NCBI RefSeq assembly: GCF_036588685.1
Contig: NC_086373.1
Coordinates: forward strand, 21,576,001 to 21,640,000
Length of the DNA: 64,000 bases
Origin: Mytilus trossulus
Lineage: Eukaryota
Reading direction: 5' to 3'
This document shows positions 12,028-58,602 of this stretch, piece after piece (within the stretch, counting starts at the first letter, position 1; every line of letters starts with the position of its first letter). The notes below the pieces were generated by a model. The model worked only from the letters and a program-made list of their open reading frames with translations, did not search any database and was not told the origin of the DNA. Made by a program: the position numbers and the translations under genes.

Positions 12028-13543
12028 TGGCAAGATTAAGGGGTTATGATCGTTTCCCGTAATTGTACGTCGGATCATATTAGGTTTTTACTTTCCAGGA
12101 AGTTCTGTTGAGACCATCTCATGTCTACCCTGAGTGGCCGGTTCTGAATTGGTACCAGTTCGAGCTTGACTGTTAATGATACATAGTATGGCCTATGTAT
12201 TCAGTGTTTTATAATATAAAAAATGTTAATCTTTACTCCCCTGAAACCAGGGGGTGATGCGAATAAGACCCGACGTATTTGGGGATCATAACCCTCGTTC
12301 TCTTTAGAATTTAACCTGGAGGAACTTGAGCATCCATTGCTACCAATGGTGCACAGATTTGTCAGTTAAAACTAGCATGTCGGCATTCTGTAATCATGTC
12401 AGACCTCGTCATTCTAAGTGAACTGTGGCCGTTATTTCCACAATAGTTATTTGTTTGTTATGTTTTTGCCTAAAAATGGATTCTGTGATTAATACGGTTT
12501 ATCGCTTTTATAAGATAAACCAATTTAATTAAAGAGAAATGATTATTGCCTCATTCGGATCCGGTTCTTGTTTCCCGCCAATCAACGTCACATGACTCGT
12601 CAGCATTACATTGCACTAGCCAATCTTGTAGATATGTAAAAGTTTCAAAAACCCACCCACCTCCCCTTGCAATCTGCCATCTAATAACAATTCTTGTGTC
12701 TGCTGCTGTTTTATTTATCTTTTCAGAATGACCAGAACATGCCGGATCCATAACTTATTGGACAAAAAAGAGGAGACAATCAATCCGATGGATTTGCTAG
12801 CTGATTCATACGTTCGAGAACTATAATTATTATGTCAATGCTAATTTTCATGAATGGCTACCACCTTTATCTAAATATTTAGACACATTCAGTGTGAAAA
12901 TGGAATTACCAATACCTGGTATTAGATCTTCGCCTAGATGCATTTAACTTTTGACTTTATTTCAAATGGATAAAAATCATGCAGCATTTATTTTAATAAC
13001 TCGATTCTAATTGTTCATTGTTTTGTAATAAAATCATTCGTCACAGTCAAAAAGGGTGTCGGGATCTGGCAAGATTAAGGGGTTATGATCGTTTCCCGTA
13101 ATTGTACGTCGGATCATATTAGGTTTTTACTTTCCTGCGGTACCGCAGGAAGTTCTGTTGAGACCATCTCATGTCTACCCTGAGTGGCCGGTTCTGAATT
13201 GGTACCAGTTCGAGCTTGACTGTTAATGATACATAGTATGGCCTATGTATTCAGTGTTTTATAATATAAAAAATGTTAATCTTAACTCCCCTGAAACCAG
13301 GGGGTGATGCGAATAAGACCCGACGTATTTGGGGATCATAACCCTCGTTCTCTTTAGAATTTAACCTGGAGGAACTTGAGCATCCATTGCTACCAATGGT
13401 GCACAGATTTGTCAGTTAAAACTAGCATGTCGGCATTCTGTAATCATGTCAGACCTCGTCATTCTAAGTGAACTGTGGCCGTTATTTCCACAATAGTTAT
13501 TTGTTTGTTATGTTTTTGCCTAAAAATGGATTCTGTGATTAAT
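12028..13543. repeat. Near-identical direct repeats (12028-12493 and 13067-13543) bracketing a copied segment
   Basis: The copies are 466 and 477 bp. They differ by an 11-bp indel inside a palindrome and about one substitution. Confidence 0.92.
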
Positions 13544-18500: not shown

Positions 18501-18910
18501 TATACAACTCGTTAATAATAAATAAGAGTGTGTAGTAAGATTGTCAATACGACAAGTTTCCAACGGAGATCAAAGGACAAGAAAATACACAACTACTGGT
18601 CACAATGGGACCTTAGACAATGAGCAAAACTCGCACCATATAGTATCCTTTAAAAGACTAAAACTGAGTCTGCTACTTTATTAAAATAGTGCCAGGAATA
18701 AAAAAAAATCGATGTTAAATACCAATTGTGTGTGGGGTTATATACAACTGTTAATAATTTAATTTTGGATGAAACTCGTCTTCTGATTGGCTGACGTAAT
18801 TTTGTTATCAGCCCATATACATAATTTAGTCATGTGACCGTGACGCCATCAACGTTTTATTATGGTTTTCTACGGTTTGAAATGGAATTTAGAAAATAAA
18901 TTATAAGATA

Positions 18911-19123
18911 TGTAGTAAATGTCCGGAAAGTGATTGCCACAACCAGACTTGTTACCGGAACTTCAGTTAGTATTTACTGCGCAACCTCGCAGAATATATC
19001 CGGAGCTCAGACGACCCACTTGTGGTGAACTCCAGTCCTGGGATTCCTGCCCTATCAGTATATTCTACCAAGACAACATCTTATATTAGGAAAGGTATAT
19101 CGAATTATTGCACCTTTACAACA
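18911..19123 (+). repeat. 5' LTR (213 bp)
   Basis: TGTAGTAAA...TTTACAACA with imperfect terminal inverted repeats; 211/213 identical to the 3' LTR. Confidence 0.97.
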
Positions 19124-19124
19124 T

Positions 19125-19137
19125 TGGTGTCAGAAGT
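19125..19137 (+). promoter_or_regulatory. Primer-binding site complementary to tRNA-Leu
   Basis: TGGTGTCAGAAGT starts 1 nt after the LTR. It is the reverse complement of the 3' end of tRNA-Leu(CAA)-type tRNAs (..ACTTCTGACACCA). Confidence 0.88.
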
Positions 19138-19613
19138 CGGTTCGAATTTACTTTAAATCGACTCGAGACATTCATTGTTTCCTGACATTTTGGCGGCAAA
19201 ACTGAAAAATCACAACAAAGAAAACAAATAGTTATTGTACCTACAGAAAAGAACATTACATATTTCATGAGTATAATAATCATGGAAATTTAATGTCAGA
19301 ATTTCTGACAACCGTTTGCCCTTACATCCATTTGTTTTCATAGAAATACCTACTTTGATAATATTTGAAAATTTTCAAAATTCCTGGTGTCAGTTTTACT
19401 GACACTCCGCAATATGGCTAATCATTGAACAATTATCTTATCGTTATAAATCAGTGTCAGTGTTACTGACAATCCGCTATTTTGTTATTCAGTAAATGAT
19501 AAACTGCATATTTATATAATTGTGTCAGTGTTACTGACAGATTGCGACAAACCGCTACACGGTTATTTAGTAAATAATAAATCGCATAATTATAAACATT
19601 GCGTAAAAATAAA

Positions 19614-21163
19614 ATGGCGAAACCGATAAATATAAACAAAGCTAACTTTACGCAGTTAAAAGCGATTAAAAGGATAGGTGAAACTAGAGCCTTAGCAATA
19701 ATTGCAAAGAGAGAAGAAGAGGGATTACTTAATTTAGATAAACTTAAAGAGATTTCAGAAGCACCCCAATCATTGTGGACTGCACTGTTGAATGAGAAAA
19801 TAATTTGTTTTGAAGACCCAGAGGAGTCTGATGAAGGTCAAGAGGTCCTAAAAACACTATTGAGTCATTACGTCATAAGATTTTGTCGGTAGAAAAGTCG
19901 AGAGATGATATGGCAGAGACTTTTCAAACAAAAATTGAGAAAATTTCTGAACAGAGTAAAGCACAGATAGAAGAACAGAGGCTTATTTTTGAACAACAAA
20001 GAGACATTTATACAAAACAGAAAGAGGAACAAATTGAACAAATGAAAGAAATGATTAAATCACAGAATGATGAGATTAAAGATATACATGAATATTCAAA
20101 GAAAATTCAAACTCAACTACAGCAGAAAGAAACTGTGCTTAAGGTAGAAAAAGTAATAGCCGAAAAAGAGGAAAAAAGTAGTCCTGGTCAATTATTGAAA
20201 GGAAAATATAATGCTTATGATCATAAACATTCAGATTATGGTGGTCCCACAGCACCAAAGATGTCAACATATGATGGTAGAAATGACTGGCGTCCTTATT
20301 ATCTACAATTTAGCACTATAGCTGATAGATGCAAATGGCAGAGTGAGCAAAGGTTGTATAAATTGATTGAATGTTTGCGAGATAAAGCTTTGAAATTTTA
20401 CAGCTCAAGACCAAAGTTAGTACAAACTAATTATGAAAGCTTATGCAAGAAAATGGAAGAGCGTTTTGGTAGAAAGGAACCGCCACACATTGTAAGAAGA
20501 CTTTTACAAGATCTTAAACAAGAGCAAGAGGAATCGTTAGAGGAATTTGCAGAAAGAGCACAGGAGCTGGCTACCGATGGCTACCCGGATACACCAGATA
20601 ATTTCGTACAAACTTTGGCAACAGATGCTTTTCTTAAAGGTTGTGTAGACAAGCGTGCAGCTTTGATTGCTATGGACAAAAATCCAGATGCTCTGGATCA
20701 AGCGGTACAATATGTACGAAGTGCAGTGGCGAATCAAAAAGTCATAATGGGTACACGAAGAGCAGAAATTAAAAGGGTTTCTTTTATGGAGCAAAATGAT
20801 GAGAATGAGGATACATAGGAAACATCAGTCCGTGCAATTATGAAGTCTGACGAAGGAACAAATAAGATGAATGTGTTCGAGAAAAGATTACAGAAGACAG
20901 AAGATGATTTATTAGAAACTAAGATCATGGTAAAAAAAGTATTGAGCATAGTAAGTCAGAATATGAGGTCAAGGTCACCACAAAGAACAGATCGAGCTTT
21001 TTCGCCACAAAGAAGGTACAATAGTCCTGCAAGAGGTAATTGCTACAATTGCGGGGAAGAAGGTCATTTTAGTAGGGATTGCAAGAAGCCCAGAAATAGT
21101 TCTCCCTATCGTAATAGATCTCCATCACCAAAAGCTTTAAACGACTCGGGGCCAAGGATGTAG
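19614..21163 (+). pseudogene. gag: Gag: N-terminal ComEA-like HhH domain, coiled coil, capsid-like domain and CCHC zinc knuckle (one frameshift, one internal stop)
   Basis: Motifs: ININKANFTQLKAIKRIGETRALAIIAKRE (HhH); YDGRNDWRPYYLQF..LKQEQEESLEEFAERAQEL (capsid-like); CYNCGEEGHFSRDC (knuckle). Frameshift near 19843; in-frame TAG at 20816-20818. Confidence 0.9.
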
Positions 21164-21199
21164 GCCAATCCTTGACCTTTTCAGATGATACAGGCCAAC
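21136..21199 (+). promoter_or_regulatory. -1 programmed ribosomal frameshift signal (T TTA AAC plus stem-loop/pseudoknot)
   Basis: The heptamer TTTAAAC (21136-21142) is in the correct gag phase. After a 7-nt spacer comes the stem GGCCAAGGAT/ATCCTTGACC (21150-21177). The -1 frame is open into pol. Confidence 0.85.
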
Positions 21200-22080
21200 C
21201 GCCAACAGAAATGTCTGGTCAAGAACAGAAGTTTTCGATTCAAGAAATTTTTTCATTTTATAAAAGCAAAAAATCAAAAACTTTGTTCATTGAGATGAAA
21301 ATTTTAGGAAGAACATTTAAGGCTGTAATAGATAGTGCAGCACAAATATCTGTTTTGAGTACTTCAATTTTACCACTTTTACAGTCAACAATTAAACTAA
21401 AGGAACATTTAGTTTTGCGAGGAGCTGGAAAAAATTCTAAAATTGATGCTAGATATACAGAGGAGATACCTATCGAAATAGGGAAGTTAAAATCAAAATG
21501 GAGGTTTGTAACTGCTAACATAAATGATAATATCATTCTGGGTATTGATTTCTTGGAGAAATTTGGAGCAGTTATTGATATGGCTAACTACACAGTCCAC
21601 ATAAACAATGAGGCTATACCAGCGGTCTGTTTTGTTGGGAACGAGGGAGAAGAAATAAACTTATACAGGATTAGTATAAAAAAGAAAACAGTTGTGCCAC
21701 CTCATAGTTTAAAAATAGTTGATATGGAAATTGATCATCCCCAAGCAGATGATATCATCATTCAGCCGAAATCCAATTTAAAAGGTCTTCTGTCCCCAAA
21801 TGCTTTAATTGCTAAGGATGAATCCGTGAAGGCTGTATTTCGAAATGACACAGACACTTTTATCACATTGAAAGGGGGTCATAAATTTGGTATTGGTATG
21901 GAGATATACAATGTTGTAACTGATCAGGGTGATTTGGATGAAGACCCCGAAGTACATAGTGACAGAGTTTCTGTCAATGTCGATAATGCAAATTCGTGTA
22001 AAACGTCAGAAAACATAAGTGACAGATTTTCTGTCAGTTCGCCAACTGGTAATTTCGAGACATTGGAAAAGGTACGTGTA

Positions 22081-22290
22081 GGTGACAGGGTTTCTGCTGG
22101 TCCATCCCAAGGTGACAGATTTTCTGTCAGTCCGCCTCAAGGTGACAGATTTTCTGTCAGTCCGTCCCAAGGTGACAGATTTTCTGTCAATCCTTCCCAA
22201 GGTGACAGATTTTCTGTCAGTCCGCCTCAAGGTGACAGATTTTCTGTCAAACCGCTCAAAGGTGACAGATTTTCTGTCAAACCGTCCACA
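22081..22290 (+). repeat. In-frame 30-bp tandem repeat (7 units, GDRFSVSPxQ) in the PR-RT linker
   Basis: GGTGACAGATTTTCTGTCAGTCCGCCTCAA-type units at a 30-bp period; two further degenerate cores at 21960 and 22020. Confidence 0.95.
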
Positions 22291-25200
22291 GAAATTCGTT
22301 CTATACTAAAAGATGGAAATTCTGTAAATAAACTAAACAAATTAAAAGAACTCAATTCTAAGATTCCAGAACACCTAAAAGATTTGTATACTCGAACAGT
22401 AAAAGATTTTGACATAGATCGTAGCATAAAGATTGCTGAAGTACTCATTGAATTTCAAAATATTTTTTCTAAAGGCGACATGGATCTGGGATTGTTTAAT
22501 GGGGATATTAAACATCGAATTCACACAGGGGAGGCAGCTGCAATTAAACAACAAATGCGTAGAACTCCACTGAAATTTGAGAATGAAGAAGAAAAACATC
22601 TTAGTCAAATGTTAGATAAGGGGGTTATTAAACCTTCTATTTCAGATTGGTGTTCCTGTCCTGTTTTAGTAAGAAAGAAGGACGGCAGTCTGAGGTACTG
22701 TATTGATTTTCGTCCCCTTAATAAAGTGACAACTAAGGACGTGTTTCCTTTGCCAAAGATTGAGTTTTGTATGGATACTTTGAGAGGAAGTGCCTACATG
22801 AGTACGTTGGACATGGCTGCAGGTTATTGGCAAATAGAGATCGATGAGAAAGATCGACATAAAACGGCTTTCGTCACGAAATATGGACTTTTCGAGCATG
22901 TCCGACTGCCTTTTGGATTATGTAACTCACCAGCTACTTTCAGCCGAGTCATTCAGTTGGTTTTGAAAGGTCTGACATGGAGAGAATGCCTTGCATATTT
23001 GGATGATGTCATCGTTTTAGGTCACAGTTTTGATGACCATTTGATTAAGCTTCTGCACATCTTAAAAAGATTTCAGTACTACAATTTAAAACTTAAACCG
23101 TCCAAATGTTTCTTATTTCAAAAAGAAGTCAAGTTTTTGGGGAAAATTGTAAACAAAGATGGTATTTCAGTAAATCCGGAGAATATGCAGACTGTAAAAA
23201 GTTGGCCAAGACCAAAAAAAAAAAGGAGCTGGAATCTTTTCTCGGGTTCACAAACTACCACAGGGAACACATAAAGAATTATGCTGAAATTGCTGTGTCT
23301 TTGCATAAATTAACAGGAGGAAAATCAGAGTTTTTATGGACTGAAGAACAGGAAAATGCTTTCGAACAACTAAAAATAGCACTAGTAAATTCTTCTGTTT
23401 TAGCCTATCCTGATCCGGAAGCTACCTTCATACTTGATACTGATGCCTCGGACAAAACCATTGGTGCTGAACTTAGCCAACTACAAGATGGAAAAGAAAG
23501 AACGATAAGCTTTTCGAGTAAGGTTTTAACACCAGCTCAGAAAAAGTATTGCACAACTCGAAAGGAGTTATTGGCTATTGTCACTTTTACAAGGCAGTAT
23601 AGACATTATTTACTAGGTAACCAGTTTGTTGTCCGTACAGATCATAATAGTCTCACTTGGCTGTTAAATTTCAAGAATATTGAAGGTCAACTAGCTCGGT
23701 GGATTGAGGATTATCACAATATAACATGTTAGTTCAACATAGACCAGGTAAAAAACATGTAAACGCAGATGCTCTTTCACGAATCCCAGATACACTTAAT
23801 GAATGCAATTCATACTTGCCAAGTATTCCACTTAATAATCTTCCATGTGGAGGTTGTAAATACTGTACAAGAGCCCGGAGTCAGTGGTCCACATTTGAAG
23901 AAGAAGTAGACTTTGTTAAACCACTAACCGTACGTGCTGTAAGCATTAAAGATGTCACATCCACAAAAGGGAAGATATTACAGCCTTATACTGAAAATGA
24001 ATTAAGAGACGCACAAAAAAATGACATAGATCTGAGTACTGTTATTGCCTGGTTATCTACTGATTTCTCTCCTTCAAAACAAGACTTACAGATGAGTAGT
24101 CCATTGGTAAGGCATTTGTGGCAGTCAAAATCTGAACTTGAGTTTAGAAATGGTATACTCTACTATTTTTGGGATGATGCAGTTGCACCAAGGCTCTTGT
24201 TTATAACACCAAGGAAATTAAGACAGGCAATGCTTCATCTTTGTCATGATTTACGATCAGCTGGACATTTAGGACAAGATAAAACCTTGGCAAAATTAAG
24301 ACACACAGTTTACTGGTATGGAATGACAATGGACTGTAAACTTTATGTTTCAACATGCCATATATGCAATAGATACAAAAAACCTTTGAAGAGAGCCAAA
24401 GCAGAATTGGGTAGGTACCATTCAGGCGTTCCCTTTGAACGTATTCATTTGGATATACTTGGACCATTGCCAGTCACTCAACAGAATAATAAGTATGTTC
24501 TGGTCATCATAGATCAATTTACTAAGTGGTTGGAATGTTGTCCCTTGCCAAACCAAAATGCTGAAGTGGTAGCAAAAGCTTTGATGGATAGCACTATATC
24601 TAGATTCGGTTGTCCCATGGAGCTACATACAGACCAAGGCAAAAATGTAGATGGGAGGGTTATTAGACAACTATGTGATCTTCTTGAAGTTTCCAAGACA
24701 AGAACATCTGCATACCATCCTGCCTCCAACGGTCAGGTTGAGAGATATAATAGAATAATTACTCAATTAATCCGTTGTTTCTTAAAGAAGAATCAAAACA
24801 GATGGGATATCCACCTACAACAACTAGCAGGTGCTATCAGAGCAACAGAGAATCGACAGACTGGTTTTACACCGAATTTCATGGTTTTCGGACGAGAGGT
24901 AAATCAGCCTATTGATCTGGTTTTAGGACAAATAAAGGAACGTTTTCCAGATCAAGATATTTGTAAGTATGTTCAAAGTTTAAGAAATTCTTTAGAGGAC
25001 GCTCATGATATCGCCAGAGATAATCTAAAATCTGCGCAGAAACGTCAAAAGCAAGATTATGATTTAAATCTCAACTTTAGAAAATATTGTGTAGGAGATA
25101 TTGTACTAAAATTAGATACAGCCAGGAAAGTAGGGATATCCCCAAAATTAAAAGCTCCATGGAAAGGTCCATATGTGGTCATTGAAGTTAAGTCTCCAGC

Positions 25201-25787
25201 ATTGCTAAAGATTAAAGACAGAAAAAGAGAGGAAGTCGTGCATCATGATAGACTCAAGCTGTGCATTGACAGAGAAATACCGTTATGGTTACAGAGACTT
25301 AGAAATGATATTCTTGGACGAGCTGAGAATAAATTGGAGCGAGACACTGATATGGAGCTGGAGGATTTATATCTGGATATTTTATTTAGTGGTGAGAATC
25401 AGAATACTCAAAATGGTTTGAATCCTCTGTCAGAATCTCTGACTGACGATCTTGATAACAATGATCCCTTCTTGGTGTCATATTCTCTGACAAACAATTA
25501 TAATAATGAACAGATAATTCTTAAAGATCTTCATTCACTTATTGATATCCCGTCCGATTTAGACGCAACACTCGCTTATGACTTGAGTCAAAATTCGCTG
25601 CTTCCGAATAGTGATGATATAAATCGCGATACAGACAAATTAGATAATGGGTCCAAACAGGGACAAGTAGGTAGGCGCAAAAGACAAATGCCATCCTACT
25701 TACATGATTATGTACAGTAGATATTTTGAAATAGTGTAAATAGGATTATTATGTATATATTTACATGTTCGTTAATTTATTTTAAGT

Positions 25788-27254
25788 ATGGAGGATGAGC
25801 TTGATTATGGTCCATTTGATGGTGAAATCCCTGAAAGATTGGAGGAAGATGCCAGGATAAAAGGCAGTAGTAGGAATCTGAGTAAGGCAAGACTCTGTCC
25901 GGTATGTCCAGGTCGTTTCACTAATGTAAGAAGGCATGTATTTCACCAACATTTGCCCTGGTACACTAATCCACTAACTGCATGTTGGACTTGCCATAAA
26001 TAATTTGGTCAGAAAAGATGTTAGAAAATCATTGCCTTGAACTCCACAACTGCAATATTGCTGATAATATTTTCAAAGAAGAGTACCAGTCAGTATGGAC
26101 AGAATTGATGAATGGTCTCCTATTGGAACTTTGCCAGCGCTATGACAAAAAGACCCTTGATCATCTGGTGGAGTATGTACGAACAGAAGCTGTCTTTAAA
26201 CAATGTCAATCAGCTGTATTCCATTGGACAGATATACCCTTATTGAATTTCTACAATAAAAAAAAACAGATTTGATGTGGAAGTCATTCATGCTGTATTT
26301 CCTCCATCTGCAATATATTCTTTGGTACATTGGAAAATTTTGGCTTTATTATTAAAAGGAACTGAGGATGCCGAAAATCTTATAACATTTGAAAAGGAAA
26401 TATCCCTCTATCAATGCAGTATCCAAAAGGCTATTATGGTTACTGATTCTCATTTCCATTTGGATAAGATGAAACAACAAGCCAGATTTTCTGGCTTACC
26501 GATCTACAAATGGAAAGATGGAGAATCAGTATACCAAATAAGACATCTGATTGCTAATTATGCCTTCCCAAGACGCTGGACAACAATAGAAGAGATTGGA
26601 GAAATCAGGAGAGATCGACGTATAAGAAGTACTGCTGGTATACATCCACGGATAGTGAAGGGGGAGGAGATGAGTGTACTGAGTTCATGGATTACCGATT
26701 TAGAGATGTTAATCTGTGTGAACAGAATGATTGCAGTTGGAGAATGTGGGTTAGACTCCTCTGATAAACCAAATAGCAAAGAACTCAAGAAACAGGTCCA
26801 CGTATTTGAGGAGCAGCTTAAACTAGCTAAGAGGCAACATCTTCCTGTGGTGATTCATTGCAGGGGAGACAAGAAAATAATGAATATGTGCAGGGATTCA
26901 TTAACCAATTTCCTAGAGGAAGATCATCCAATACATTGGCATTGTTTTAATGGTGACACTGAAGAATACAGACAATGTAAAGCCATGTTTCCTAACGGTA
27001 AATTTGGTATCTCTCCGTTCCTACTCATGGATAACAAGTATCCAGGATATAGAGCAACCGTTTGTGAGATGAAGTTGGAGGATCTAGTTTTGGAGACCGA
27101 TTCACCCTATCTTAAACCTCAAGGACACCATGAGGCATCTCCTGGACTACTTAAGGAAATCATCTGGAAGCTCGCATCCATGTTTCACGTACACTCCGAG
27201 GAAATAGCTAGGGTGACAACTCGGAATGCCAGTCAACTGTATAATATAAATTAA
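25788..27254 (+). pseudogene. Accessory ORF3: two C2H2 zinc fingers plus a TatD (TATDN2-like) nuclease domain; ~488 aa when repaired
   Basis: Fingers: CPVCPGRFTNVRRHVFHQH and CWTCHK*FGQKxMLENHCLELH. TatD motifs: DSHFHLD, GIHP, AVGECGLD, FEEQLKLA..LPVVIHCR, HWHCFNG, LETDSPYL, TTRNASQLY. Lesions: TAA at 26001 and frameshifts near 26015 and 26258-26266. The TatD domain itself (26277-27254) is uninterrupted. Confidence 0.93.
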
Positions 27255-27391
27255 ATGCAGGAGGAAGGAATTTGTATATATGCTTTTAACCTGATTATTG
27301 ATTGATTGACAGTTATGAATTTGTTTTTTGGTTCGGTGAAGGATTTTAGCATATCGTTATTAGTGTCAGCATTGATGGCTGACGTTTTAAT

Positions 27392-27405
27392 AAAACGGGG
27401 AGGAA
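27392..27405 (+). promoter_or_regulatory. Polypurine tract
   Basis: AAAACGGGGAGGAA directly abuts the 3' LTR. Confidence 0.88.
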
Positions 27406-27618
27406 TGTAGTAAATGTCTGGAAAGTGATTGCCACAACCAGATTTGTTACCGGAACTTCAGTTAGTATTTACTGCGCAACCTCGCAGAATATATCCGGAG
27501 CTCAGACGACCCACTTGTGGTGAACTCCAGTCCTGGGATTCCTGCCCTATCAGTATATTCTACCAAGACAACATCTTATATTAGGAAAGGTATATCGAAT
27601 TATTGCACCTTTACAACA
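27406..27618 (+). repeat. 3' LTR (213 bp)
   Basis: Copy of 18911-19123 with two C/T differences; followed by the TSD GATA. Confidence 0.97.
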
Positions 27619-29338
27619 GATATGACTGGAATATTTTTTCTGTCTATTAAAATTAAAATTTAAAAAAATGTGGTGTGTTAAATAACCCGCGGCTACGCGC
27701 GTTATTCAGTGTGCACCCAATTTTTTATGTTATTTCTTCATAGACAGAAAAAATATTACAGTCATTCCTTAAAAAAATATTTATTTTCTGATTATTTTGG
27801 GATTTTCAACCACATTTATCAAATGCTATTTTTTTTTTATATGTGTGTAAATCATATAAATGTTATTTACGAACAAAATATAAAACTTTCCATGTTCCTT
27901 CCTAATAACACAGTTTTATATGCTACGTGTGTTATTGAGTGTGTAACACATTTTTATGTTATTTCTTCATTTAAACAGAAACATATTACAGTCATTCCTT
28001 GAATATACATGTATTTTAAAGTTTAGTTAAGTATTTAATTTTCTATCGAAACCAATTTTCGACAGTTTGCAATATGAGTTTTGACCGTCAAACTCAGTTT
28101 AAGTTCTTTTTCTAGGACATACATACGTAGTCATGAATAATAAGGTTAGGAGAAATTCGTTTGTGAATGTTCGTCTGACTGAAATGACGAAAACAATAAT
28201 GATACTTTGCAGAGGAAATCAATGTTCTTTCATCTGAAGATTGTTTTCAACGTAACCAAATTTATCCCATTGACACGCAATACAAAATTTAATAATAAAT
28301 AGCATGCAGGATTCCCATTATCCAGATTATCTTCAAATAAGTCGCTTATACCAATGAGAAAATAAATTCAATTTTTTTCAAATTGAATAAGAACTTGACT
28401 GTTAAATTATGTAACGGTTTGTATGTACTGAAGTTAATTGATCGTTTTTATGTAAATTTCATTCACTTCTCAAATCTGTAACCTACAAATTCAATAATGA
28501 TTTTTTTTGCCATGAGGGAATTGTCTCCTGAAAAAGTGAAATTATCTTCAATATACTGTCGAATTTATCCTCAGTGAAATAAATGACTCGAGGTCATTTC
28601 ATTTCACCATCGAGACTCTTAAATCTGTCAAAATCGCAAGTCGCTACAGCCCTATCAAGTTGTTGACTCTGAACAAAAACTCATTATAAAGAAATAATCA
28701 AAACACCAATTCCCCGGTTGTAAACTCATCAAATTTATCATTCAGGATAAGGAAATGAAGCAGAGCATCATATTTGTTCAAATATGTGATATTTGTTCAA
28801 ATATAACATATTGCTACATACATAACATTGAATTGCTGCGAAACTGCAAGGTTAACTATAGAGTATGTTGTTTATGAAGTCAATATGTATGCATTGATCT
28901 CAAAATTGGTCTACATAAGACAAACTTCTCACGAAACACTGCATGGAAATGATCTTATAGACACCTCCATCTACAGGCTTTGACAAGAAACCATAACATT
29001 TTTATATAGAATTATAATTAATAAACACATTTTTGACTTATACTTCTTTAGGTGACAACGAATTATTTTGTTCTTTACATCCTTTAATTTACTTCAAATA
29101 CCTGCACACAAAGAAACTTACTTTATTGATATTATAGAGGATTGCTTAAGCAAGACATTTGCGTCATAGACAGTATTATAAATAAATATATATATGAGTG
29201 CCATTTCGGGAGAGAAACTTTAACTTAATGTTTAAGCGCAGTACCTTTATAGATTATATTAACATTAGTGTGTTATTTGATTTATACATACCCTAGTATT
29301 AATTATGAAAAAAATGAAAACATCACGTTTATTAATTT

Positions 29339-35300: not shown

Positions 35301-35797
35301 ACGAGTTTCCGTTTGCTTGTTGCTTGTATCATTAAGCACATGCAAATCTTTACACAACTTATCATAGCATATAATTGTTTTTGTAGATGATGTAGAGACA
35401 AAAAGATAAAGTTATTTTTGTGCAAACCCAAATTTTTATAAGTATGAAAAATATTTGATAAACATATAAAGCAATTTATACAACATATTATTATAATTCT
35501 GTACGATTACGATGCACTTTAAGACCAGATGACAACAATAGTTACGGCATTTGTTATTGGATTTTCAAAACAACCTTTGTAAGAGTGCATAAGATAAGCA
35601 ATAAACGTTTATTCAAAACATTTAATGTTTTAATGGGGTTTTAATTCACAAGAAGAGGAGAGAAATTAATGCACGTGTTTACTAAGGATTTATTTGTTTG
35701 CACTAAAGATAATGATTACGGTGTACAAAAAAATAGGTGAACGCATGATATTTAAGCATGAAAGAAAGTAGATGTGTGGTATATTAAAAGCATAATC

Positions 35798-36946
35798 TTA
35801 ACACAAGAAAAACATAAACACACGCTTTAAAAATGTTTTGGATTCATTTCGAAATTTGGTATCCATAAAAGCATAAATGAAAGGGTTTACAATATTGTTG
35901 ATTATAAACATATCCGATACGAACAGCACACCTGATCTCTTCGCTTTTGACATTTCCTCCCAAAAATCCTTGTTTAGTCCTTCAATAATAAGCAAAATTA
36001 CCTTTGATATATAACAAAGTAAAAATATCAAGGTTATGAAGAGAAACATAATTGTAATATTATGGGTAATTCGACGATTATTTTTCGTACGTCTTACGGA
36101 TCCATTTTGCTTGGGATTATTCACCGTCGAGGTTTCCATGTTCTTCTTTGCATCCAAACTATTTGGATCACTGATGCCGATTGAAAGCTCTTCGATTAAT
36201 TGCATGTCTCCACTAAAAGAAGCAGCGCTTTTTTTAATCGAAATTGTATTTCCTTCTAGGTCTGGATCGTTTTGCGCATATTTACGCCTCGGTTCCTGAA
36301 CTTTAAGCTGATGGAATATTGTGTACCCGATTTTAGAGTATAAAATGATAAGGGCTAATGTTACAACAGTAGCAAACGTTCCCAATACAATTGAGTAGAC
36401 AACCCGGAATGTTGTTTCGCCATCTTTTACTCCTCCACAATGCATTCCTTCTATCCCATGCTCAGAGCTGTAAAAGGAATTCGTTTCAAACACAAAGGGT
36501 ATAGGTAGTGCAATAATAAATGAACACAAATTTGCGAGACACAATGAAAGTCTTTTTACCGAACGTTGTATAGGAGATTTCTGCCGATGACACACTTTTA
36601 AATATCGCTGAATTGCTATAATGAGCAAAACAAATATTGGAACAAAAGTAGTAAATCCAGCAAAAAACTGTGTTAGCTTGCAAACTATACTGTTTGAAAA
36701 AACTACTTGATTTAGACACTCATAAATTGCAAAAGATCCAAGATATACACTTGCTATCATGTCAAAAACAGCTAAAATTGGTATGAAATATCTTTCATCT
36801 GATAGGTCCTTTATTTGAAGTGCATAAACAAACAAAACAATACCGTTTCCAAATATTCCAGTCAGGATATAGATAGAAAGAATAATAATGTTTGGTATCA
36901 AACTTTTCACTATTTCATCATTCAAATCCAAAACTGTGATGTTCAT
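35798..36946 (-). CDS. Intronless class A (rhodopsin-like) GPCR, orphan peptide-receptor-like, 382 aa
   Basis: Seven hydrophobic segments. GN in TM1, LAVFD in TM2, Cys at the top of TM3, QRY (DRY variant), ECL2 Cys, NPFIY in TM7, and helix 8 (KFR). Confidence 0.93.
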   Translation of the reverse strand: MNITVLDLNDEIVKSLIPNIIILSIYILTGIFGNGIVLFVYALQIKDLSDERYFIPILAVFDMIASVYLGSFAIYECLNQVVFSNSIVCKLTQFFAGFTTFVPIFVLLIIAIQRYLKVCHRQKSPIQRSVKRLSLCLANLCSFIIALPIPFVFETNSFYSSEHGIEGMHCGGVKDGETTFRVVYSIVLGTFATVVTLALIILYSKIGYTIFHQLKVQEPRRKYAQNDPDLEGNTISIKKSAASFSGDMQLIEELSIGISDPNSLDAKKNMETSTVNNPKQNGSVRRTKNNRRITHNITIMFLFITLIFLLCYISKVILLIIEGLNKDFWEEMSKAKRSGVLFVSDMFIINNIVNPFIYAFMDTKFRNESKTFLKRVFMFFLC

Positions 36947-38049
36947 GTTTATTCAACCCAAAAAACATACCATACACCTTGTAGAAGTTTGAATATAAAG
37001 ATTCAAAACATTTTTATTTATTGTTCCTCATATAATGTTATAAATCTATATAGATGCTGTAAACGTAGAATTTCCTTCCTTGAACAAAATAAGAGAGAAT
37101 GATTATCCATACCACTTAATGACAATTAAGGTTTGAGTTTCCTGATATTGAAATTTTAAATGAGAAAATCTTAATAAGTTAAAGTATTTCTAAGCCGGTC
37201 ACGGTTTTCAAAAAATTCAACCAGAAAAATTGTAAAGGAAATAAAAAAAAATCTGCTTTACCATTTTAATAAAATTGTATTGAAGGAAAGTAAAAAAAAA
37301 CAGGTTCCAGCCATATTTCAAAACTAAGGGAATATTTTCTCTAAATAGAATACGGATCTGAATTCAGATCTAAAGTGGAAAAAGACCTACTTTTATGTAT
37401 TATTTTAATCTTAATGTTTACCTATCCATAGTTTCTTCATATGCTCGCTCATTTTGTTCACTTCTTAAGTTGTCACTGAGGAAGATATCTGCTGTTTTTT
37501 TTTATGTTTTACATGTGACCCCAAAATAAAGCTTAACAAGTCGAAATTGTGGTATTTTGTGATTGCGTGCATAGAAGATAGCAGGGCATAGAAACATTTT
37601 TATATTGATCGATATATATTTAGATTATATGTTCATCAGATGCATACTTTGCATTTTATTTTATAGATCTACCGAAAGTAATTTATAGTCATGTGATATA
37701 GGTATATCGTGTATTTTCATTTACATCGAGAGAAAAAAATCATTTATCAGTTCATAATAATGGTATTTAACTGACAATGAAATCATATTATGCATTGTTT
37801 TGCACAACAAACACATATTCTTCTGGAATCTGAGATATTTGACTCATGCCTTGACAACTGTCTAATGCCGAACACGTCTTTTGAACAGATATAACTTTAA
37901 AGTATCATTAAGCAGTCAAATTGATGTTAATAACTTATAATATATGGCTAAATTTTAATATGCATTTAGCAGTATAAGAATGTATCATAGATGATTTTAT
38001 TTATTTCCTATAAAATTGGTATATTACAAGACTTTTGATGTTGTATTAC

Positions 38050-38165
38050 TACTGCTCCAACAAAGTTATGAGGAGGACAGATTAAAAATGACACTTCGTA
38101 AATTTTATGGACACCATCACGATTTGGTTGATCCATACGATGTATCTTTGTCCAAACTAACATTT
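38050..38165 (+). mobile_element. PLE C-terminal fragment
   Basis: LLQQSYEEDRLKMTLRKFYGHHHDLVDPYDVSLSKL resembles the PLE post-RT motif LLxQGYxxxRLxxSLRKFYGRHxDLV. Confidence 0.65.
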
Positions 38166-39049
38166 TTACCACGTGTTAGATTGTGGTTAGTTATAACGTC
38201 GTCTGATATTACTATTACCGAACGTGACATATTCACGATTGTGACTGTTTTTCTAAGTGTGAATTCGTATTGCTTGAAAACGTGGCACGGTACTTTTACA
38301 TCCTAAACTAATTTGTTGGGTTTTGATGTAGTGTTTGTTGTTTTCAACGGCATCGAATTTTTTCAAATGTTTTAACGTTTGTAGTTGTAAATCGTATTTT
38401 TTCTGTTGTATTATAGTGTTGTATTGGGGATAACTACTCCTCCAGTTCATTTGGAAGATTTAATTATGGATCAACGAAATTTAAACTATATATTTGGTTT
38501 GCAGTTTGATCAGAAGAAACAACCACAAAGCTGGATAAAACAATTAATTATCTAATAATACTTCAAATAAATATTAATTAGTTTTATAATTTTCACTATT
38601 ATTAATAGAAGTTAGACGAGTCAAAAAAATCGAATCTTGAATTTCATACAAATTCTGTTAATTTTCGGAATACGTTTTAGAAATTTATATGTGACGTCAC
38701 TTTGGGCGATGCATTGACTATGGATAACAGGGCTGTGATTTTGTGATTTTTTTCGTTTTTTATTCTCTAGCTAGTCACCACTTCAGTTTAATCAGTTTAA
38801 TCATGTATATCTATTATATAGTCATTTTATAAAAAATACTGTTTTGCAAAACTATGTATTATTCTTGATAATAATGATGTTTTGTCCCAGGCGGATAACC
38901 CTAACCGCACAACTTTTTTTAAATTTTGGTCCTCGGCGATCTTCAACTTGGTAGTTATGGCTTTCAAACTTTTTACATCTGAGCATAATTTTGTGTGGAC
39001 GTAGCGCGCGTCTGGTGTATAAAACTATTTGTTAACCTGTTACCTTTAG

Positions 39050-39415
39050 ATGGCTATTATCCGTTTGTTTCTCTGTCCTATATTTTCTCCCATTTATTTG
39101 TTTATCTATTGTAACCCTGTCGTGTAATGTTGTAATTTTAATGTTATAATTAGCACTGCCATTAAAGCAGGAGGTTTGGCATGCCACAAAACCATTTTTT
39201 CATAAAATGCTCTGTACCAAGTCAGGAAAATGGCCATTGTTACATTATAGTTCGTTTCTCTATGTGTTACGTTTCGGTGGTGTGTGTCTGTTGTGTCGTA
39301 GTTCCCTTATATTTGATAAGTTTCCCTCAGTTTGAGTTTGTAACACGGATTTGTTTTTTTCTCTTCCGATTGATGAATTTTGAACAGCGGTATACCACTG
39401 TTGCCTTTATTTATA
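39050..39415 (+). repeat. Interspersed repeat, related to the inverted copy at ~43243-43790
   Basis: Shared segments GAGGTTTGGCATGCCACAAAACC, TGTACCAAGTCAGGAA..TGGCCATTGTT and the 3' end TTTTGAACAGCGGTATAC.ACTGTTGCCTTTATTT. Confidence 0.8.
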
Positions 39416-40015
39416 TAGTTTGATTTGCAACTGTTCTGAATTTTGTTTACCATGTATCGAATCGAAAGAATGAAGTATATTGTAAAACAGATGGTGGTCC
39501 AAATGGATAAAAAGTCTTCCTGACCTCACAACCATAAATAAAAAAATTAATCATACATATGTCAGCTGGTTTTTACACTTGGAAATGCGGCAAATAAGTT
39601 TTTTCACAACTAATGGTTGTAACATTTACATGATTTTTTAAAATAAAATCCTTTTGACACAAAGAAAAAAGTATCAGAGGCACCACATTTTAAATATTAA
39701 TAGTTAATTAATAGGTATGTAAACAATTTGATGAACATATTAAACATTTACAAAATTGTATCATCATCCATAACGTTTTCAATGCACTATTAGCTATGAT
39801 GACAAAACATTTTTCGGGACATGTTTTGGGTTTTAAACACAATTATTGTAAGAGTCCATGAAATTAGCAATTACTGTTAATTCACAAGTTAACAATTAGT
39901 GCACGTGTTACCTCATGGTTCATGTGCTTGCACTTAAAGTATGATGATTACGTTATGAAAACATAGGTGAAAACGCGACATTTTAGTCTTTAAGGTAGAT
40001 GTGTGGTATAATAAA

Positions 40016-41188
40016 CTAATAATCTTTACATACGCAAAACATAAACAAACGTTTCAAAAATGTTTTGGATTCATTTCGAAATTTGGTATCCATGAAAGCA
40101 TAAATGAAAGGGTTCACAATATTGTTAATTATAAACATATCCGATATGAACAGCACACCTGATCTTTTCCCTGTTGACATTTCCTCCCAAAAATCCTTGT
40201 TAACTCCTTCAATAATCAGCAATATTACCTTTGAAATATAACAAAGCAAAAATATCGAGGTTATGACGAAAAACATAATTGTAATATTATTGGTAATTCG
40301 ACGATTAATTTTCTGTCGTCTCATTGATCCACTCTGCTTAGGAGTATTTCCCATTGAAATTGTCATGTCCTGATTTACGTTTAAATTATTTGGATCACGA
40401 ATAACTGTTGAATTCTCAATATCTTTTTCCGTTTCAATCAATTGCACGTCTCCACTCAGAGAAGCAGCACTTATTTCGATCGAAATTGTCTTTCCTTCCT
40501 GGTCTGAATCGTTTTGCGTATGCTTGCTCTTCGGTGTATTGGCCTTAAGCTGATGGAATATTGTATACCCGATTTTGGAATATAAAATTATAAGCGATGA
40601 TGTTACCACAACGGCAAATGTTCCTAATACAATTGAGTACACAATCGGGACTATTGTTTTGCCATCTTTTATTCCACCACAATGCATTCCGTCTATCCCA
40701 TGCTCAGAGCTGTAAAAGGAATTCGTTTCAAACACAAAGGGTAAAGGTAGCGCAATAATAAATGAACACAAATTTGCGAGACATAACGAAACTCTTTTTA
40801 CCGAAAGTTGCATTGGAGATTTCAGAGGATGACACACTTTTAAATATCGCTGAATAGCTATAATGAGTAAAACAAATATTGGAACGAAAGTAGTAAATCC
40901 AGCAAAAAACTCTGCTGTCTTGCAGACTATACTGTTTGAAAAAACTACTTGGTTTAGACATTCATAAATTGCAAAAGACCCAAGATATACACTTGCTATC
41001 ATGTCAAAAACAGCTAAAATTGGTATGAAATATCTTTCATCTGATAGGTCCTTCATACGGAGTGTATAAACGATCAAAACGATACCGTTTCCAAAAATTC
41101 CTGTCATGATATATAGAGAGAGTAAGACAATATTTGGTATAAGACTTTTCACTATTTCATCATTCCATTCCAATGCCGTAACATTCAT
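40016..41188 (-). CDS. Intronless class A GPCR, tandem paralogue of 35798-36946, 390 aa
   Basis: Same motifs (GN, LAVFD, QRY, NPFIY). Long stretches are identical to the neighbouring gene, and the 3' flanks are also homologous. Confidence 0.93.
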   Translation of the reverse strand: MNVTALEWNDEIVKSLIPNIVLLSLYIMTGIFGNGIVLIVYTLRMKDLSDERYFIPILAVFDMIASVYLGSFAIYECLNQVVFSNSIVCKTAEFFAGFTTFVPIFVLLIIAIQRYLKVCHPLKSPMQLSVKRVSLCLANLCSFIIALPLPFVFETNSFYSSEHGIDGMHCGGIKDGKTIVPIVYSIVLGTFAVVVTSSLIILYSKIGYTIFHQLKANTPKSKHTQNDSDQEGKTISIEISAASLSGDVQLIETEKDIENSTVIRDPNNLNVNQDMTISMGNTPKQSGSMRRQKINRRITNNITIMFFVITSIFLLCYISKVILLIIEGVNKDFWEEMSTGKRSGVLFISDMFIINNIVNPFIYAFMDTKFRNESKTFLKRLFMFCVCKDY

Positions 41189-49730: not shown

Positions 49731-52228
49731 CTAGAACAATCATATGCATGTTTCAACAAGAAACATGTGGTGCCACTATTGTTAACGCTGCCAATATCTT
49801 TATACATATTGGTCATTGTGCGGCCTTAAAACATGAGAGAACTCATACAGTAAACTCAGCTGTTACATGTGACCCCCAACAAGTACTTGTTAGAAACATG
49901 GACATAAGAAGAGTAATTAGTATTAAAGCTTATTTTTGGTTTAATGGTCTATAGACATATTCGTCAAAGCTAATGGGGTATTTTATTTTAGAAACTTGAA
50001 ATACTTTATTTATAGACTAGAAGTGGTTGTGACAGACGTGAGGTAACATCGAGATGTCTTGATGTATTGTACCGTTGGGTTGTCATCACATGGACAAACA
50101 CCTCACATTTCGTTTCATGCATATGTCAATGTTGAGGACCTACATTCCATGAATAAATGATCACAAATTATTCAAACAATTGTTTTTATCATATTTTGAC
50201 ATCTGGTTAAGATTACAAAATCATTCGTATACAAGGATATTAATATTTCAACCAATAAAAGGTCATTAACAGCCATAAGGATCAATTGTATAAATGCAAG
50301 GTCAGTAATTTGTCTATTATCATCATTACTGTATTTTCCCACAATATTGTTTTGATGGTGTAGGCGAATAATTTCTTTTGACAACGCTCAGTTATAATGA
50401 AGTATAATATTAATTTTAAAAGATAACTTGTCAGTGTTTTTCATATACTCTATATACATGTTTCAATATTTTTTCTTAATCATATTTAGTCATTACCTAC
50501 AATATGGATGTTAGATTGCATGTGTTGCTTGTGTGGATATTGTATGACCATTGTGATTTATATTAATGTTTTTTGCTCTGTATTGGCCCTTTAGTTAAGA
50601 ATAAAGACATTTATTTTGATTTGCCTTGGTTTATATTAAATTTGATCGTTTTTTTTTTTGGAAGTTGCATTGCACGTAGTCGATATCATGGCTGAAGGAG
50701 GTAGTGCCAAAACACGCAATACTGTTAATTCAGAAATCAAAATGCGATACTCGTTATAATTTCGATTTTTAAAAACAATTGCATACACATATATGTATAA
50801 TCTAGTAAAATGCGAATTTTTATTAGTGCGACACTAATCACGTCGCATACATCGCATTAATGAAAAATCTCGCAATAATTTCGAAATTTAAAAGTAAACT
50901 GCGCCTGGCGATGATCAACATTAATTTTCTCTCTGACTTTTTGCCGAAATCATGGGGAATGAGATCACTGTCGATACTATTATTTGTGGACTTTCAGTGT
51001 TATAAAACTATGTCGTATCAACCTGCTCACATGAAATTTCATAACGCCTTATTTCTATATATTTTTTCAAAACATAAAGCATTCGACCTTTTTGTTTTTT
51101 TCTTGTTTCAATATTTGTTTTTATAATGATTAAGATTATCACACAAAATTGACTCCAAAACACATTTTTACACTTTTTACCTATTATGTCTGTTTGTTTT
51201 GGTCACGTTTTATTGTCAATACGATTGAAATGTATGCGACTGTCATACAAGTGTGAGGTTTAACTAGCTATAAAACAAGGAAAACAAGGTTTAATTCAAA
51301 ACTTTCTAAATAAGAAAATGCCTGAACTAAGCAAGGAATGTGACAGTTGTTATCCATTTGTTTGATGTGTTTGATCTTTTGGTTTGGCCATTTGATTATT
51401 GACTATTCTGTGTTTTATTTTCCCCAAAGTTCGGTTTTTATTGGGATTTTACTGTACATATGAACTAGTTTGATCATATTTTGACATCTGGTTAAGTTTA
51501 CATAAACATTTCTAAACAAGGTTATAAATATTTCAACAAACCAAAGGTCATTAAAAGCCATAAGGATCATTTGTATAAATGCAAGGACAGTATTTTGTCA
51601 ATTATCATTAATACTGTATTTCCCACTATTTTCTATTGATAGTGTAGGCGAATAATTTATTTGTCAAAGCTCAGTCTTAATGTGGAATATAATATTAGTT
51701 TGGAAGGATGACCAGTGAGTTTTGTTCCAGCTATCCGGTGGTTTTCACAGATTTTCTTTATCCGGAAGAATTTTATTTATATACTGTATATACATGTTTC
51801 CATCTTTATTCATTAAGAATTAGTTTTTATGTTAGATTGCATGTATTGGTTGTGTGGATATTATATGATTTTTGTGATTTGTTTTCATTCATGTCCTATG
51901 GAAGCCTTTCAATTAGGAATAAACACATTATACGATTCGCTCGTGTATGTAACAATGTTTTAGATTTTAACGATAGAAATTTATGTATTACTGAAAAATT
52001 ATTACACAAGGGTTTTCGATATCACAAATAAGTCAAAACATTTACTAAATTTTATCATCGGTATAAAGACATCATTCGTAAATATAGCTCAACATGCAGA
52101 CTTCTAATACGTTCAGGTATTTCATATCCAATTCTTTATGGAAATATTCTTTATAAAGCACAAAGGTGTCAGTATTCACCTCAGAAACTTACAAAATAGT
52201 TATCAAAAGTACCAGGATTATAATTTTA

Positions 52229-52273
52229 TACGCCAGACGCGCGTTTCGTCTACATAAGACTCATCAGTGACGC
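52229..52273 (-). ncRNA. Type I hammerhead ribozyme
   Basis: GCGTCA CTGATGA GTCTTATGTAGAC GAAA CGCGC GTC TGGCGT: intact core, stem II GTCT/AGAC, GUC cleavage triplet, stem I GCGTCA/TGGCGT. Confidence 0.85.
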
Positions 52274-52585
52274 TCAGATCAAAATAGTTAAAAAGCCAAA
52301 TAAATACAAAGTTGAAGAGCATTGAGGATCCAAAATTCCAAAAAAGTTGTGCCAAACACGGCTAAGGTAATCTACTCCTGGGGTAAGAAAATCCTTAGTT
52401 TTTCGAAAAATTCAAAGTTTTGTAAACAGAAAATTTATAAAAATGACCATATAAATTAATTTTCATGTCAACACCGAAGTGCTGACCACTGGGCTGGTGA
52501 TACCCTCGGGGACGAAACGTCCACCAGCAGTGGCATCGACCCAGTGGTGTAAATAGTTATCAAAAGTACCAGGATTATAATTTTA

Positions 52586-52630
52586 TACGCCAGACGCGCG
52601 TTTCGTCTACATACGACTCATCAGTGACGC
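52586..52630 (-). ncRNA. Type I hammerhead ribozyme (second copy)
   Basis: Same motif 357 bp away, with one change in stem II. Confidence 0.82.
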
Positions 52631-53009
52631 TCAGATCAAAATAAATACAAAGTTGAAGGGCATTGAGGATCCAAAATTCCAAAAAAAGTTGTGCCAAACA
52701 CGGCTAAGGTAATCTACTCCTGGGGTAAGAAAATCCTTAGTTTTTCGAAAAATTCAAAGTTTTGTAAACAGAAAATTTATAAAAATGACCATATAAATTG
52801 ATATTCATGTCAACACCGAAGTGCTGACCACTGGGCTGGTGATTCAAAACCTTTGAATAGACCTATTAAGAAGGGATATAATTACGATACTGTTGTCAAG
52901 TCATTAAAGATTGCATATTTTGGCGTTAATATTGAGTCACTGATAAGGTCTTTGCATTGGAACTAAACACATTTATTCTAAAAAACAGTTGTTGGCATGA
53001 CACGGGTTA

Positions 53010-53225
53010 CCGTATAGCGGGTTATTTTCGCGGGTGTAAAATTTCGCGATTTTCATTGAAAAAGGTATACGAAATATTTTAGCGGATATTATTTGGCGGA
53101 TGAAAACTTTTATTAATACCTTTGCATGAACACCTTTAATTTGGCGGAATTTATTTTTGGCGATTTTCTTCTATCCGCGAAAATAAGCGAAAATTTACAC
53201 CCCGCGAAAATAACCCGCTATACGG
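53010..53225. mobile_element. Tc1/mariner-type MITE with TA TSD
   Basis: TA-CCGTATAGCGGGTTATTTTCGCGGG ... CCCGCGAAAATAACCCGCTATACGG-TA. Confidence 0.9.
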
Positions 53226-58047: not shown

Positions 58048-58602
58048 GGTGGTATGGGAGTCTAAAATAAAAATGATAGAATTTGTTCATACTTTGTCAA
58101 AATGTAGTATCTATTGATACATGTTCAAAAGTATTATAAAAATGATAGGTCAGCGCGCATTTTCTCAAGCTACAGGTTGTGACAAAATGACAAATTGTGT
58201 ATGGATTATACAGGAAAAAACAACATTTTGTGAATAGAAACTAAACAAAATGATAGAACTGTAAAATAAATTAGGAAAAGAGTCACCGTACGTTTTTTCC
58301 GGCTAAAAGACAAAATAGGAAAATTTCATGTAGAGTCCTTCAGAAAATGCTCTATTTTAGAGTTACCTCCCCTTAAATTGCCAATTTGAAAATATTATAA
58401 AAAAAAAAACAACCAAAAATAATCTACACTTGTAAAAATATTAATATTTATAAGTTATATTCTTATAAATTGGTTCTTTGAAATGAAAATTCACATTAAA
58501 AATCTGCATTCCTGCATCAAATTTTGCTAACTTGATAGAAAATATGGACCTTAGATTCTCTGTTTTTTACAATCCAAGATGGCGAAAGACACCCATACCA
58601 CC
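58048..58602. mobile_element. Non-autonomous DNA transposon at a TTAA site (Kolobok-like)
   Basis: TTAA-GGTGGTATGGGAGTCT ... AGACACCCATACCACC-ATAA. Confidence 0.7.

Follow-up and report, generated by a model that had tools for sequence, protein, structure and literature searches.

A TatD nuclease, probably of TATDN2 type, encoded by the third open reading frame of a Gypsy retrotransposon clade in mussels

Additional genes in LTR retrotransposons have been described in several settings, and the accounts below follow those portions of the cited papers that were available to us. The bdelloid rotifer elements Juno and Vesta are Gypsy-like and carry as ORF3 a non-envelope enzyme, a 3′-5′ exonuclease whose catalytic residues are intact and which, according to that paper, is typically produced from spliced messages (PMC5408684). 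Plant Tat elements and the retroviruses with an additional RNase H are LTR clades that keep a second nuclease of cellular origin; in plant Tat the second nuclease is an RNase H, and the native one has decayed in the retrovirus-like forms (PMC10508981, PMC4408406). In errantiviruses the third gene past pol is env (PMC13524379), and the Cer1 element has an accessory protein, CERV, made from a spliced mRNA (PMC10309623).

The element described here lies in a 64,000-nt stretch of Mytilus trossulus contig NC_086373.1 (the window). It resembles Juno and Vesta in being Gypsy-like with a non-envelope enzyme as ORF3, but the fold differs, the rotifer enzyme being an RNase H-like DEDDy exonuclease (PMC5408684) and the mussel enzyme a TIM-barrel TatD; Pfam identifies the window ORF3 as TatD and not as a DEDDy exonuclease. 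In the available part of that paper the DEDDy domain is family-specific, was acquired at least twice and is reported to be near neutral within a genome, whereas the TatD ORF3 marks a deep clade, tracks the integrase, is under purifying selection and has a zinc-finger domain. Compared with plant Tat, the fold is unrelated, the nuclease has its own open reading frame, and the native RNase H motifs are still there. ORF3 occupies the slot of errantivirus env and is likened to CERV by description, not by sequence; unlike both, it is an enzyme by sequence, with neither a signal peptide nor a clear membrane helix.

A Gypsy LTR retrotransposon, inserted recently, is found at positions 18911-27618 of the window. 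Its two LTRs show 2 differences over 213 nt and have TG..CA ends (start TGTA, finish AACA). The Pfam domain order Gag, protease (PR), RT, RNase H, integrase (IN) is that of Gypsy-type elements, and the LTRs with TG..CA, the primer-binding site, the polypurine tract and the short target duplication are likewise those of Ty3/Gypsy (Metaviridae). The features are as follows.

18907..18910, + strand: left target-site duplication GATA; the element lies inside a dispersed host repeat
18911..19123, + strand: 5′ LTR, 213 nt, TGTA..AACA
19125..19137, + strand: primer-binding site TGGTGTCAGAAGT, which we take to match the 3′ end of tRNA-Leu
19270..19272, + strand: probable splice donor of the ORF3 message, with the last exon base at 19270 and GT at 19271
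19614..21163, + strand: gag, in pieces, with HHH_3 (E 2.7e-7), Retrotrans_gag (3.1e-6) and a CCHC knuckle (1.2e-8)
21118..25720, + strand: pol, in three pieces, with protease, RT (YLDD at 22996), RNase H with acidic motifs, and integrase
25770..25786, + strand: pyrimidine-rich stretch with an AG splice acceptor, one base ahead of the ORF3 ATG
25788..27254, + strand: ORF3, about 490 codons, with an acidic start, a basic patch, two C2H2-like fingers, a helical domain and TatD
25896..26400, + strand: ORF3 N-terminal domain, two CxxC..H..H fingers and a helical subdomain, without a Pfam family, common to 732 protein clusters
26442..27245, + strand: TatD domain PF01026, class II (HxH), with H, H, E, H, H, E and D all present
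27397..27405, + strand: polypurine tract GGGGAGGAA
27406..27618, + strand: 3′ LTR, 213 nt
27619..27622, + strand: right target-site duplication GATA

Other copies of the dispersed repeat around the element, found in sequencing reads, skip the whole element. The interrupted repeat (18850-18910 and 27619-27770) is common, has inverted arms and is abundant in RNA reads. The start of Gag (19614-19760) is a ComEA-like helix-hairpin-helix, the HHH_3 match listed above, also seen in loci L034 and L138. The protease-RT interval has six to eight in-frame 30-nt tandem repeats at 22050-22289, and elsewhere in the window (12096-13445, 35765-40732 and 50184-63019) there are local duplications and several short dispersed repeat families.

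The window copy is broken in gag and pol as well as in ORF3. Among the matches scored, its family comprises one copy with an internal deletion, older fragments and a full-length pair at 99% identity, neither member of which is free of breaks. In the sister copy ORF3 is open over 487 codons, and the RT region has a stop. Mytilus genomes contain annotated relatives of the element's proteins, with identities reaching 95-100%. At G000:C11:5641318-5649024 and at C3:91491541-91501806, pairs of related copies form inverted duplicates, head-to-head or tail-to-tail.

A preliminary description of this DNA had placed a third, intronless frame on the sense strand between the pol stop and the polypurine tract and 3′ LTR, and had assigned to it a complete C-terminal TatD domain with its metal and catalytic residues. 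Both the position and the domain are borne out. The ORF3 ATG at 25788 lies 67 nt past the pol stop (25720) on the same strand, and the frame ends at 27254; in the window copy it is split over three frames, with breaks near 26015 and, within a stretch of A, near 26260. The C-terminal 270 residues match the full TatD_DNase profile (PF01026, positions 1-253, E 2.4e-42), and the motifs are located at 26445 (DSHFH), 26739 (GECGLD), 26853 (IHCR), 26937 (WHCF) and 27093 (ETDSP). A structure model of the sister-copy ORF3 (pLDDT 85.9) has TatD structures as its best matches, with a TM score of 0.83 by target. Its motifs, with HxH, Glu, His, His, Glu and Asp each in place, make the domain a class II TatD as defined in the available part of PMC10085689.

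The first 200 residues of ORF3 comprise two CxxC..H..H motifs and a helical part, modeled with confidence at a pLDDT of 88.5. The preliminary description named this region a zinc finger. Pfam finds no zinc finger in ORF3, and the CxxC..H..H motifs are seen in an alignment of 11 rows, where the finger Cys and His are invariant or nearly so, and weakly by fold, with a likeness to zinc-finger arrays of Z up to 4.0. Foldseek gives no significant match of the N-terminal domain to finger arrays, fold searches yield no clear match, and the Atlas look-alikes of the domain are unnamed or generic finger clusters. Where the finger motif was matched, five of eight ORF3 proteins have 6-7 Lys/Arg within the 20 residues preceding it.

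Two simple roles for ORF3 are excluded. Signal peptides and clear membrane helices are absent from the nine ORF3 proteins examined, so these proteins are not envelopes or env remnants; the first 30 residues are hydrophilic in all nine, and the top 19-residue hydropathy is 0.9-1.7. Errantiviruses are defined by a fusion glycoprotein with a signal peptide and membrane anchor, and ORF3 is instead a TatD. The element's own RNase H motifs are present, and therefore the TatD is no substitute for a dead RNase H.

The TatD domain was searched across the mussel assembly, which gave 119 matches, or 105 loci after 14 adjoining pieces were dropped. An integrase or RT match lies upstream on the same strand within 9 kb at 63 of the 105, with the pol side represented by integrase matches scored for 114 of 1821 candidates and by the best 80 of 150 RT matches; the other 42 loci include host genes, fragments and loci whose pol falls outside the scored matches. 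In a first count TatD was found downstream of the integrase in 28/29 matches with at least 54% identity to the window element, in 28/43 at 45-53% and in 0/42 below 45%. When locus pairing, a Pfam search and a search with the N-terminal domain were combined, the 72 scored integrase matches at least 45% identical to the window element divided into 59 with TatD, 10 that have the N-terminal domain alone and 3 that lack both; among the 42 below 45%, none has TatD and one has the N-terminal domain. Thus the nuclease is not confined to one copy. In the 10-kb stretches of three distant families, pol is followed by a TatD open reading frame of 415 codons (in a broken-frame copy) to 840 codons.

The preliminary description had proposed setting an RT tree against a TatD tree, and the comparison was made with integrase. 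In an integrase tree of 23 rows, one branch of 17 rows includes all 15 TatD carriers (SH-aLRT 99), and integrase and TatD tree distances of 15 families are correlated (Spearman 0.88, permutation p 0.0002). At the level of sequence this congruence shows long co-inheritance, not functional interplay.

Among protein clusters at 50% identity, 732 are matched by a profile built from the N-terminal domain. Among the best 150 of these, 79 have room behind the N-terminal domain, and 65 of the 79 have TatD there. Of the remaining 14, 11 have two to five copies of the N-terminal domain, accompanied by ankyrin repeats in 5 of them and by a B-box in 2. Proteins P0193-P0196, P0200, P0201, P0212, P0223, P0282 and P0316, of 945-2992 residues, have two to five N-terminal-domain copies and no TatD, and some add ankyrin repeats or a B-box. 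Members with a species name come from four species of Mytilus and, with P0137, from the oyster Saccostrea. In trees, two proteins of Dreissena, known from the proteins alone, fall with the retrotransposon TatDs. Among the 80 metagenome loci listed, most are ordinary TatD genes, at least 10 match the N-terminal domain and at least 6 match pol; at L044, L064, L078, L084 and L092 an integrase is directly upstream of ORF3 on the same strand. No relative was found in IMG/VR. The elements form a large, old group in mussels and probably in other bivalves.

Selection on the nuclease was assessed with 30 loci, from which a filter of 80 codons, >55% identity and 8 differences left 54 pairs. The dN/dS of TatD is below 1 in all 48 measurable pairs (0.09-0.72), which share branches and so are not independent; the other 6 are saturated, and the highest values belong to old broken copies. 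In the 28 comparisons between eight families, synonymous positions are saturated or close to it (pS 0.68-0.86), and the proteins still share 31-57% identity. A set of 43 TatD domains combines 17 from loci with 26 from database proteins, some of which lack a known context. In this set the catalytic Glu is present in 43/43, the inner His in 41/43 and the Asp in 42/43, and HxH is kept in 37 of the 38 rows that cover that position. By these measures the retrotransposon TatD is under purifying selection and does not evolve neutrally. The view of the preliminary description, that this is a captured and retained accessory nuclease, is strengthened by the many families, the purifying selection and the distance from the host gene, and comparison of the sequences makes it very probable that ORF3 encodes a retained, functional accessory protein.

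The origin of the domain was examined in trees of 82 and 30 rows. These are quick trees, with no vertebrate TATDN2 or TATDN1 among their rows. In both, the retrotransposon TatDs, the host spliced TatD gene (four exons on L035) and a tardigrade TATDN2 (P0052) are separated from bacterial TatDs and from one TATDN3-like row, with support of 99 and 100, respectively. The affinity to TATDN2 proposed earlier is supported by these trees, with thin sampling of host genes. A single clade of all retrotransposon TatDs has a support of 17, and a further, smaller tree places the host gene among the retrotransposon sequences with support 82. Bacterial contamination or a bacterial origin is ruled out by the LTRs, the target duplication, the many chromosomal copies and the tree.

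With animal TATDN2, ORF3 shares the HxH class II site and an N-terminal extension ahead of the nuclease, as far as the available parts of PMC10711561 and PMC10085689 describe it. The differences are that ORF3 is encoded by a retrotransposon and has no coding introns, and that the extension is predicted by structure modeling to be a folded zinc-finger/helical domain, where human TATDN2 has a disordered region (same sources). The window TatD is about 33% identical to the host TATDN2-like exon with which it was compared. It is thus not nearly identical to the host gene, and a recent transduction does not apply.

Further intron-free TatD frames of the TATDN2 type are found at L037:1398-3692 (+) and L038:2888-3847 (+) and in P0141. 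An RT fragment and an OTU protease (E 2.5e-12) precede one of the frames at the two loci, and one has partial copies elsewhere; in P0141 TatD is fused to a Ulp1 protease. Since these three group with the host gene, they hint at further captures of TatD by mobile elements. A TATDN3-like TatD frame at L036:2998-3819 (+) is intron-free across most of the domain.

A pyrimidine tract and AG ahead of the ORF3 start were seen in most families prior to read mapping. With fixed criteria, and the first in-frame ATG taken mechanically, an acceptor is found at this ATG in 9 of 16 families, compared with 161 of 1715 other ATGs (binomial p 3.5e-6); the other seven families fail the test. One contig of run X3, presumed RNA, joins 19270 to 25787 with GT..AG at the predicted acceptor. 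Its depth is 4.9, and the shorter arm of the joint spans 30 letters. For this assembly, a spliced DNA copy is rejected as the source of the joint, since none is present among 68 matches scored for 40 of 114 candidates. In the same run the ORF3 contig has a depth of 27.8 and the gag-pol bins 0-8, contig depth being a poor measure of expression; in run X1, presumed RNA, the depth is 19.3 over ORF3 and 2-11 over gag-pol. None of the runs found to contain the element is recorded as RNA. The raw RNA runs X22 and X23 have almost no reads over the element interior, and their reads fall mainly on the flanking repeat. The ORF3 message is probably spliced upstream of the ATG, so the term "intronless" in the preliminary description is correct for the coding part but not for the message. 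An ATG at 19267-19269, just ahead of the probable donor, would open a short frame that overlaps the ORF3 start out of frame if the message is spliced.

TatD is missing from one sub-lineage nested inside the TatD clade. In the L031 family a long open gag-pol, the N-terminal domain and the acceptor are kept and TatD is gone, and at least 10 copies of this sub-lineage have the finger domain without TatD. Because the sub-lineage kept the finger domain and lost the nuclease, the TatD is best classed as accessory. The L031 type (L031:3898-5241, − strand) has gag-pol frames of 2400-2550 codons, with a short end that is ubiquitin-like by eye and has no Pfam match. At L138:1-4563 (+) HhH-Gag-protease and an ORF3 without TatD are joined in a single frame, at least 1520 codons long, and RT and integrase are absent; several long frames of this kind occur in the genome, which suggests a non-autonomous family that might package ORF3. 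A TatD family at L032:352-5808 (+) has a Tpt1/KptA RNA 2′-phosphotransferase (PF01885, E 1.3e-35) in frame ahead of the protease and a PHD finger behind the integrase, and 14 similar places are present in the genome; no report of Tpt1/KptA in Gypsy elements was found in the literature, judged by titles. A repetitive, low-complexity frame of about 2400 codons at L139:3-6644 (+), present at two genome places, has one N-terminal domain and no Pfam family.

The mechanism that we favor is as follows. The ancestor of this Gypsy clade appears to have gained, between the integrase and the polypurine tract, a third gene in which a TATDN2-type TatD follows a double zinc-finger/helical domain, and this gene has been passed on with pol since. 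A spliced sub-genomic RNA would join the 5′ leader to the acceptor near the ATG, as for env in errantiviruses, which is made from a spliced sub-genomic RNA. Because ORF3 is a separate frame without signal or membrane segments, its product would be a soluble protein acting in trans and no part of the Pol polyprotein. The fingers would bind element nucleic acid, and the metal-dependent TatD barrel, by analogy with human TATDN2, would strip RNA 3′-to-5′ from R-loop-like or hairpin structures of the element, either at transcribed copies or on reverse-transcription intermediates. The effect would be to raise yield and to lower damage or silencing signals. Since one sub-lineage lost TatD, the nuclease would be helpful but not essential. 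As a whole, the reading of ORF3 as an accessory nuclease, expressed separately, that removes RNA from R-loop-like intermediates of the element, with the substrate taken from the human enzyme, has in our analysis about an even chance of being correct.

The choice of substrate follows the available part of PMC10711561, in which human TATDN2 degrades R-loop RNA and hairpin RNA from the 3′ end, shows little activity on DNA or plain RNA:DNA duplexes, and needs its N-terminal region for binding. A role as a simple second RNase H does not follow, because the human enzyme barely attacks plain RNA:DNA duplexes. The substrates of TatD proteins vary, and TATDN1/3 and the E. coli TatDs act on DNA (PMC10085689, as far as available). 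A DNA-clearing function is nevertheless weakened by the little DNase activity of human TATDN2 and its preference for R-loop and hairpin RNA (PMC10711561, in the part available), and also by the sub-lineage that kept the ORF3 finger domain without TatD.

Other functions would account for parts of the evidence. ORF3 may protect transposition without taking part in it, by destroying nucleic acids that the host uses for detection or silencing, such as cDNA, RNA:DNA hybrids or small guide RNAs and their precursors. A product that is separate, apparently abundant and dispensable in one sub-lineage is consistent with such a counter-defence, as is the faster evolution of TatD (26-50% identity where the integrase has 46-70%). 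The clade also swaps accessory modules (Tpt1/KptA ahead of the protease, the PHD finger behind the integrase), and TatD has been co-opted in the bacterial QatABCD defence system (PMC13434339, in the part available). Pairwise rates show no sign of positive selection, however, the host target is putative, and the overlap with the RNA-clearing reading is large, in that one cut could serve both; we regard counter-defence as an unlikely account of ORF3. The finger/helical domain itself may instead be the working part, as a Rev- or CERV-like or transcription-activating regulator made from spliced RNA, with TatD as an optional helper or RNA-binding module. The domain is indeed kept where TatD was lost (L031 family) and in the L138 Gag-protease-ORF3 fusion, its two C2H2-like fingers weakly resemble the TFIIIA type of nucleic-acid-binding fingers at the fold level given above, the Lys/Arg-rich stretch precedes the motif in five of eight ORF3s, and CERV of Cer1, a product of spliced mRNA that exports genomic RNA, provides a precedent (PMC10309623, in the part available). 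But the near-invariant metal ligands and the TatD in 65 of 79 proteins with room for it call for catalysis, which leaves a purely regulatory role quite unlikely.

A finger-guided integration helper, in which a DNA 3′-exonuclease/AP endonuclease trims cDNA ends or repairs the gapped site, is suggested by the AP-endonuclease and single-strand DNA exonuclease activities of the class II enzymes TATDN3, YcfH and YjjV (PMC10085689, in the part available), by the best structural matches of the ORF3 TatD, which are AP-endonuclease/exonuclease class II enzymes, and by the helix-hairpin-helix in Gag. We consider this role very unlikely, as the nearest host group is of the TATDN2 type, whose human member has little activity on DNA, the insertions are ordinary (TG..CA ends and a 4-bp duplication), and no TatD-integrase fusion occurs in the families examined. 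Finally, the TatD could be a passively transduced host TATDN2 mRNA without a function for the element; an intron-free coding part fits a retro-copied mRNA, and the window copy is broken. Passive transduction is largely refuted and seems to us extremely improbable, given dozens of diverged families with open frames, the purifying selection and congruence with integrase, the low identity to the host gene and a fused domain that is not seen in the host exons examined.

No TatD in any retroelement was found in the literature, as covered by titles and the starts of abstracts; Repbase, Dfam, GyDB and subscription papers lay outside this scope. The term "TatD" is absent from the available text of PMC5408684, PMC6238403, PMC13524379, PMC10294476, PMC5718144, PMC6431247 and PMC8905726, from the supplements of PMC6238403 save one file, and from those of PMC10294476 outside files 13-33. 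A TatD cargo seems to be previously undescribed, and we would put at about one in four the chance that a note on the TatD ORF3 exists in a catalogue. The RT-defined clade may well be among the numbered mollusc Gypsy clades of PMC6238403 (C-clade, MolGy1-16, CsRN1 and others, in the part available), with its ORF3 unnoticed.

Taken jointly, the results would describe a Gypsy lineage of marine invertebrates, ancient, widespread, as yet without a name and represented by hundreds of protein clusters, that has replaced the env slot with a zinc-finger-guided TATDN2-type RNase from a spliced message and swaps Tpt1, PHD and HhH modules, as a toolkit for handling its own R-loops or disarming host nucleic-acid surveillance. 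It would be the first case of a eukaryotic retroelement with TatD as its cargo, and the many mussel "tatD" annotations would really stem from it. This joint reading is tentative, and we give it somewhat less than an even chance.

Accessory genes of LTR retrotransposons reveal limiting steps or host barriers, and the known examples that encode enzymes are very few. Because a TatD is kept across a deep clade and a single genome also provides natural variants by loss and by fusion, it can be tested which nucleic-acid structure needs to be removed. The hundreds of natural zinc-finger-guided TatD variants are possible structure-specific nucleases, and the N-terminal domain is a new domain without a family name. 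For the annotation of Mytilus and other bivalves there is also a warning, in that many gene models named "tatD" or "TATDN2-like" are transposon open reading frames and not expansions of host genes.
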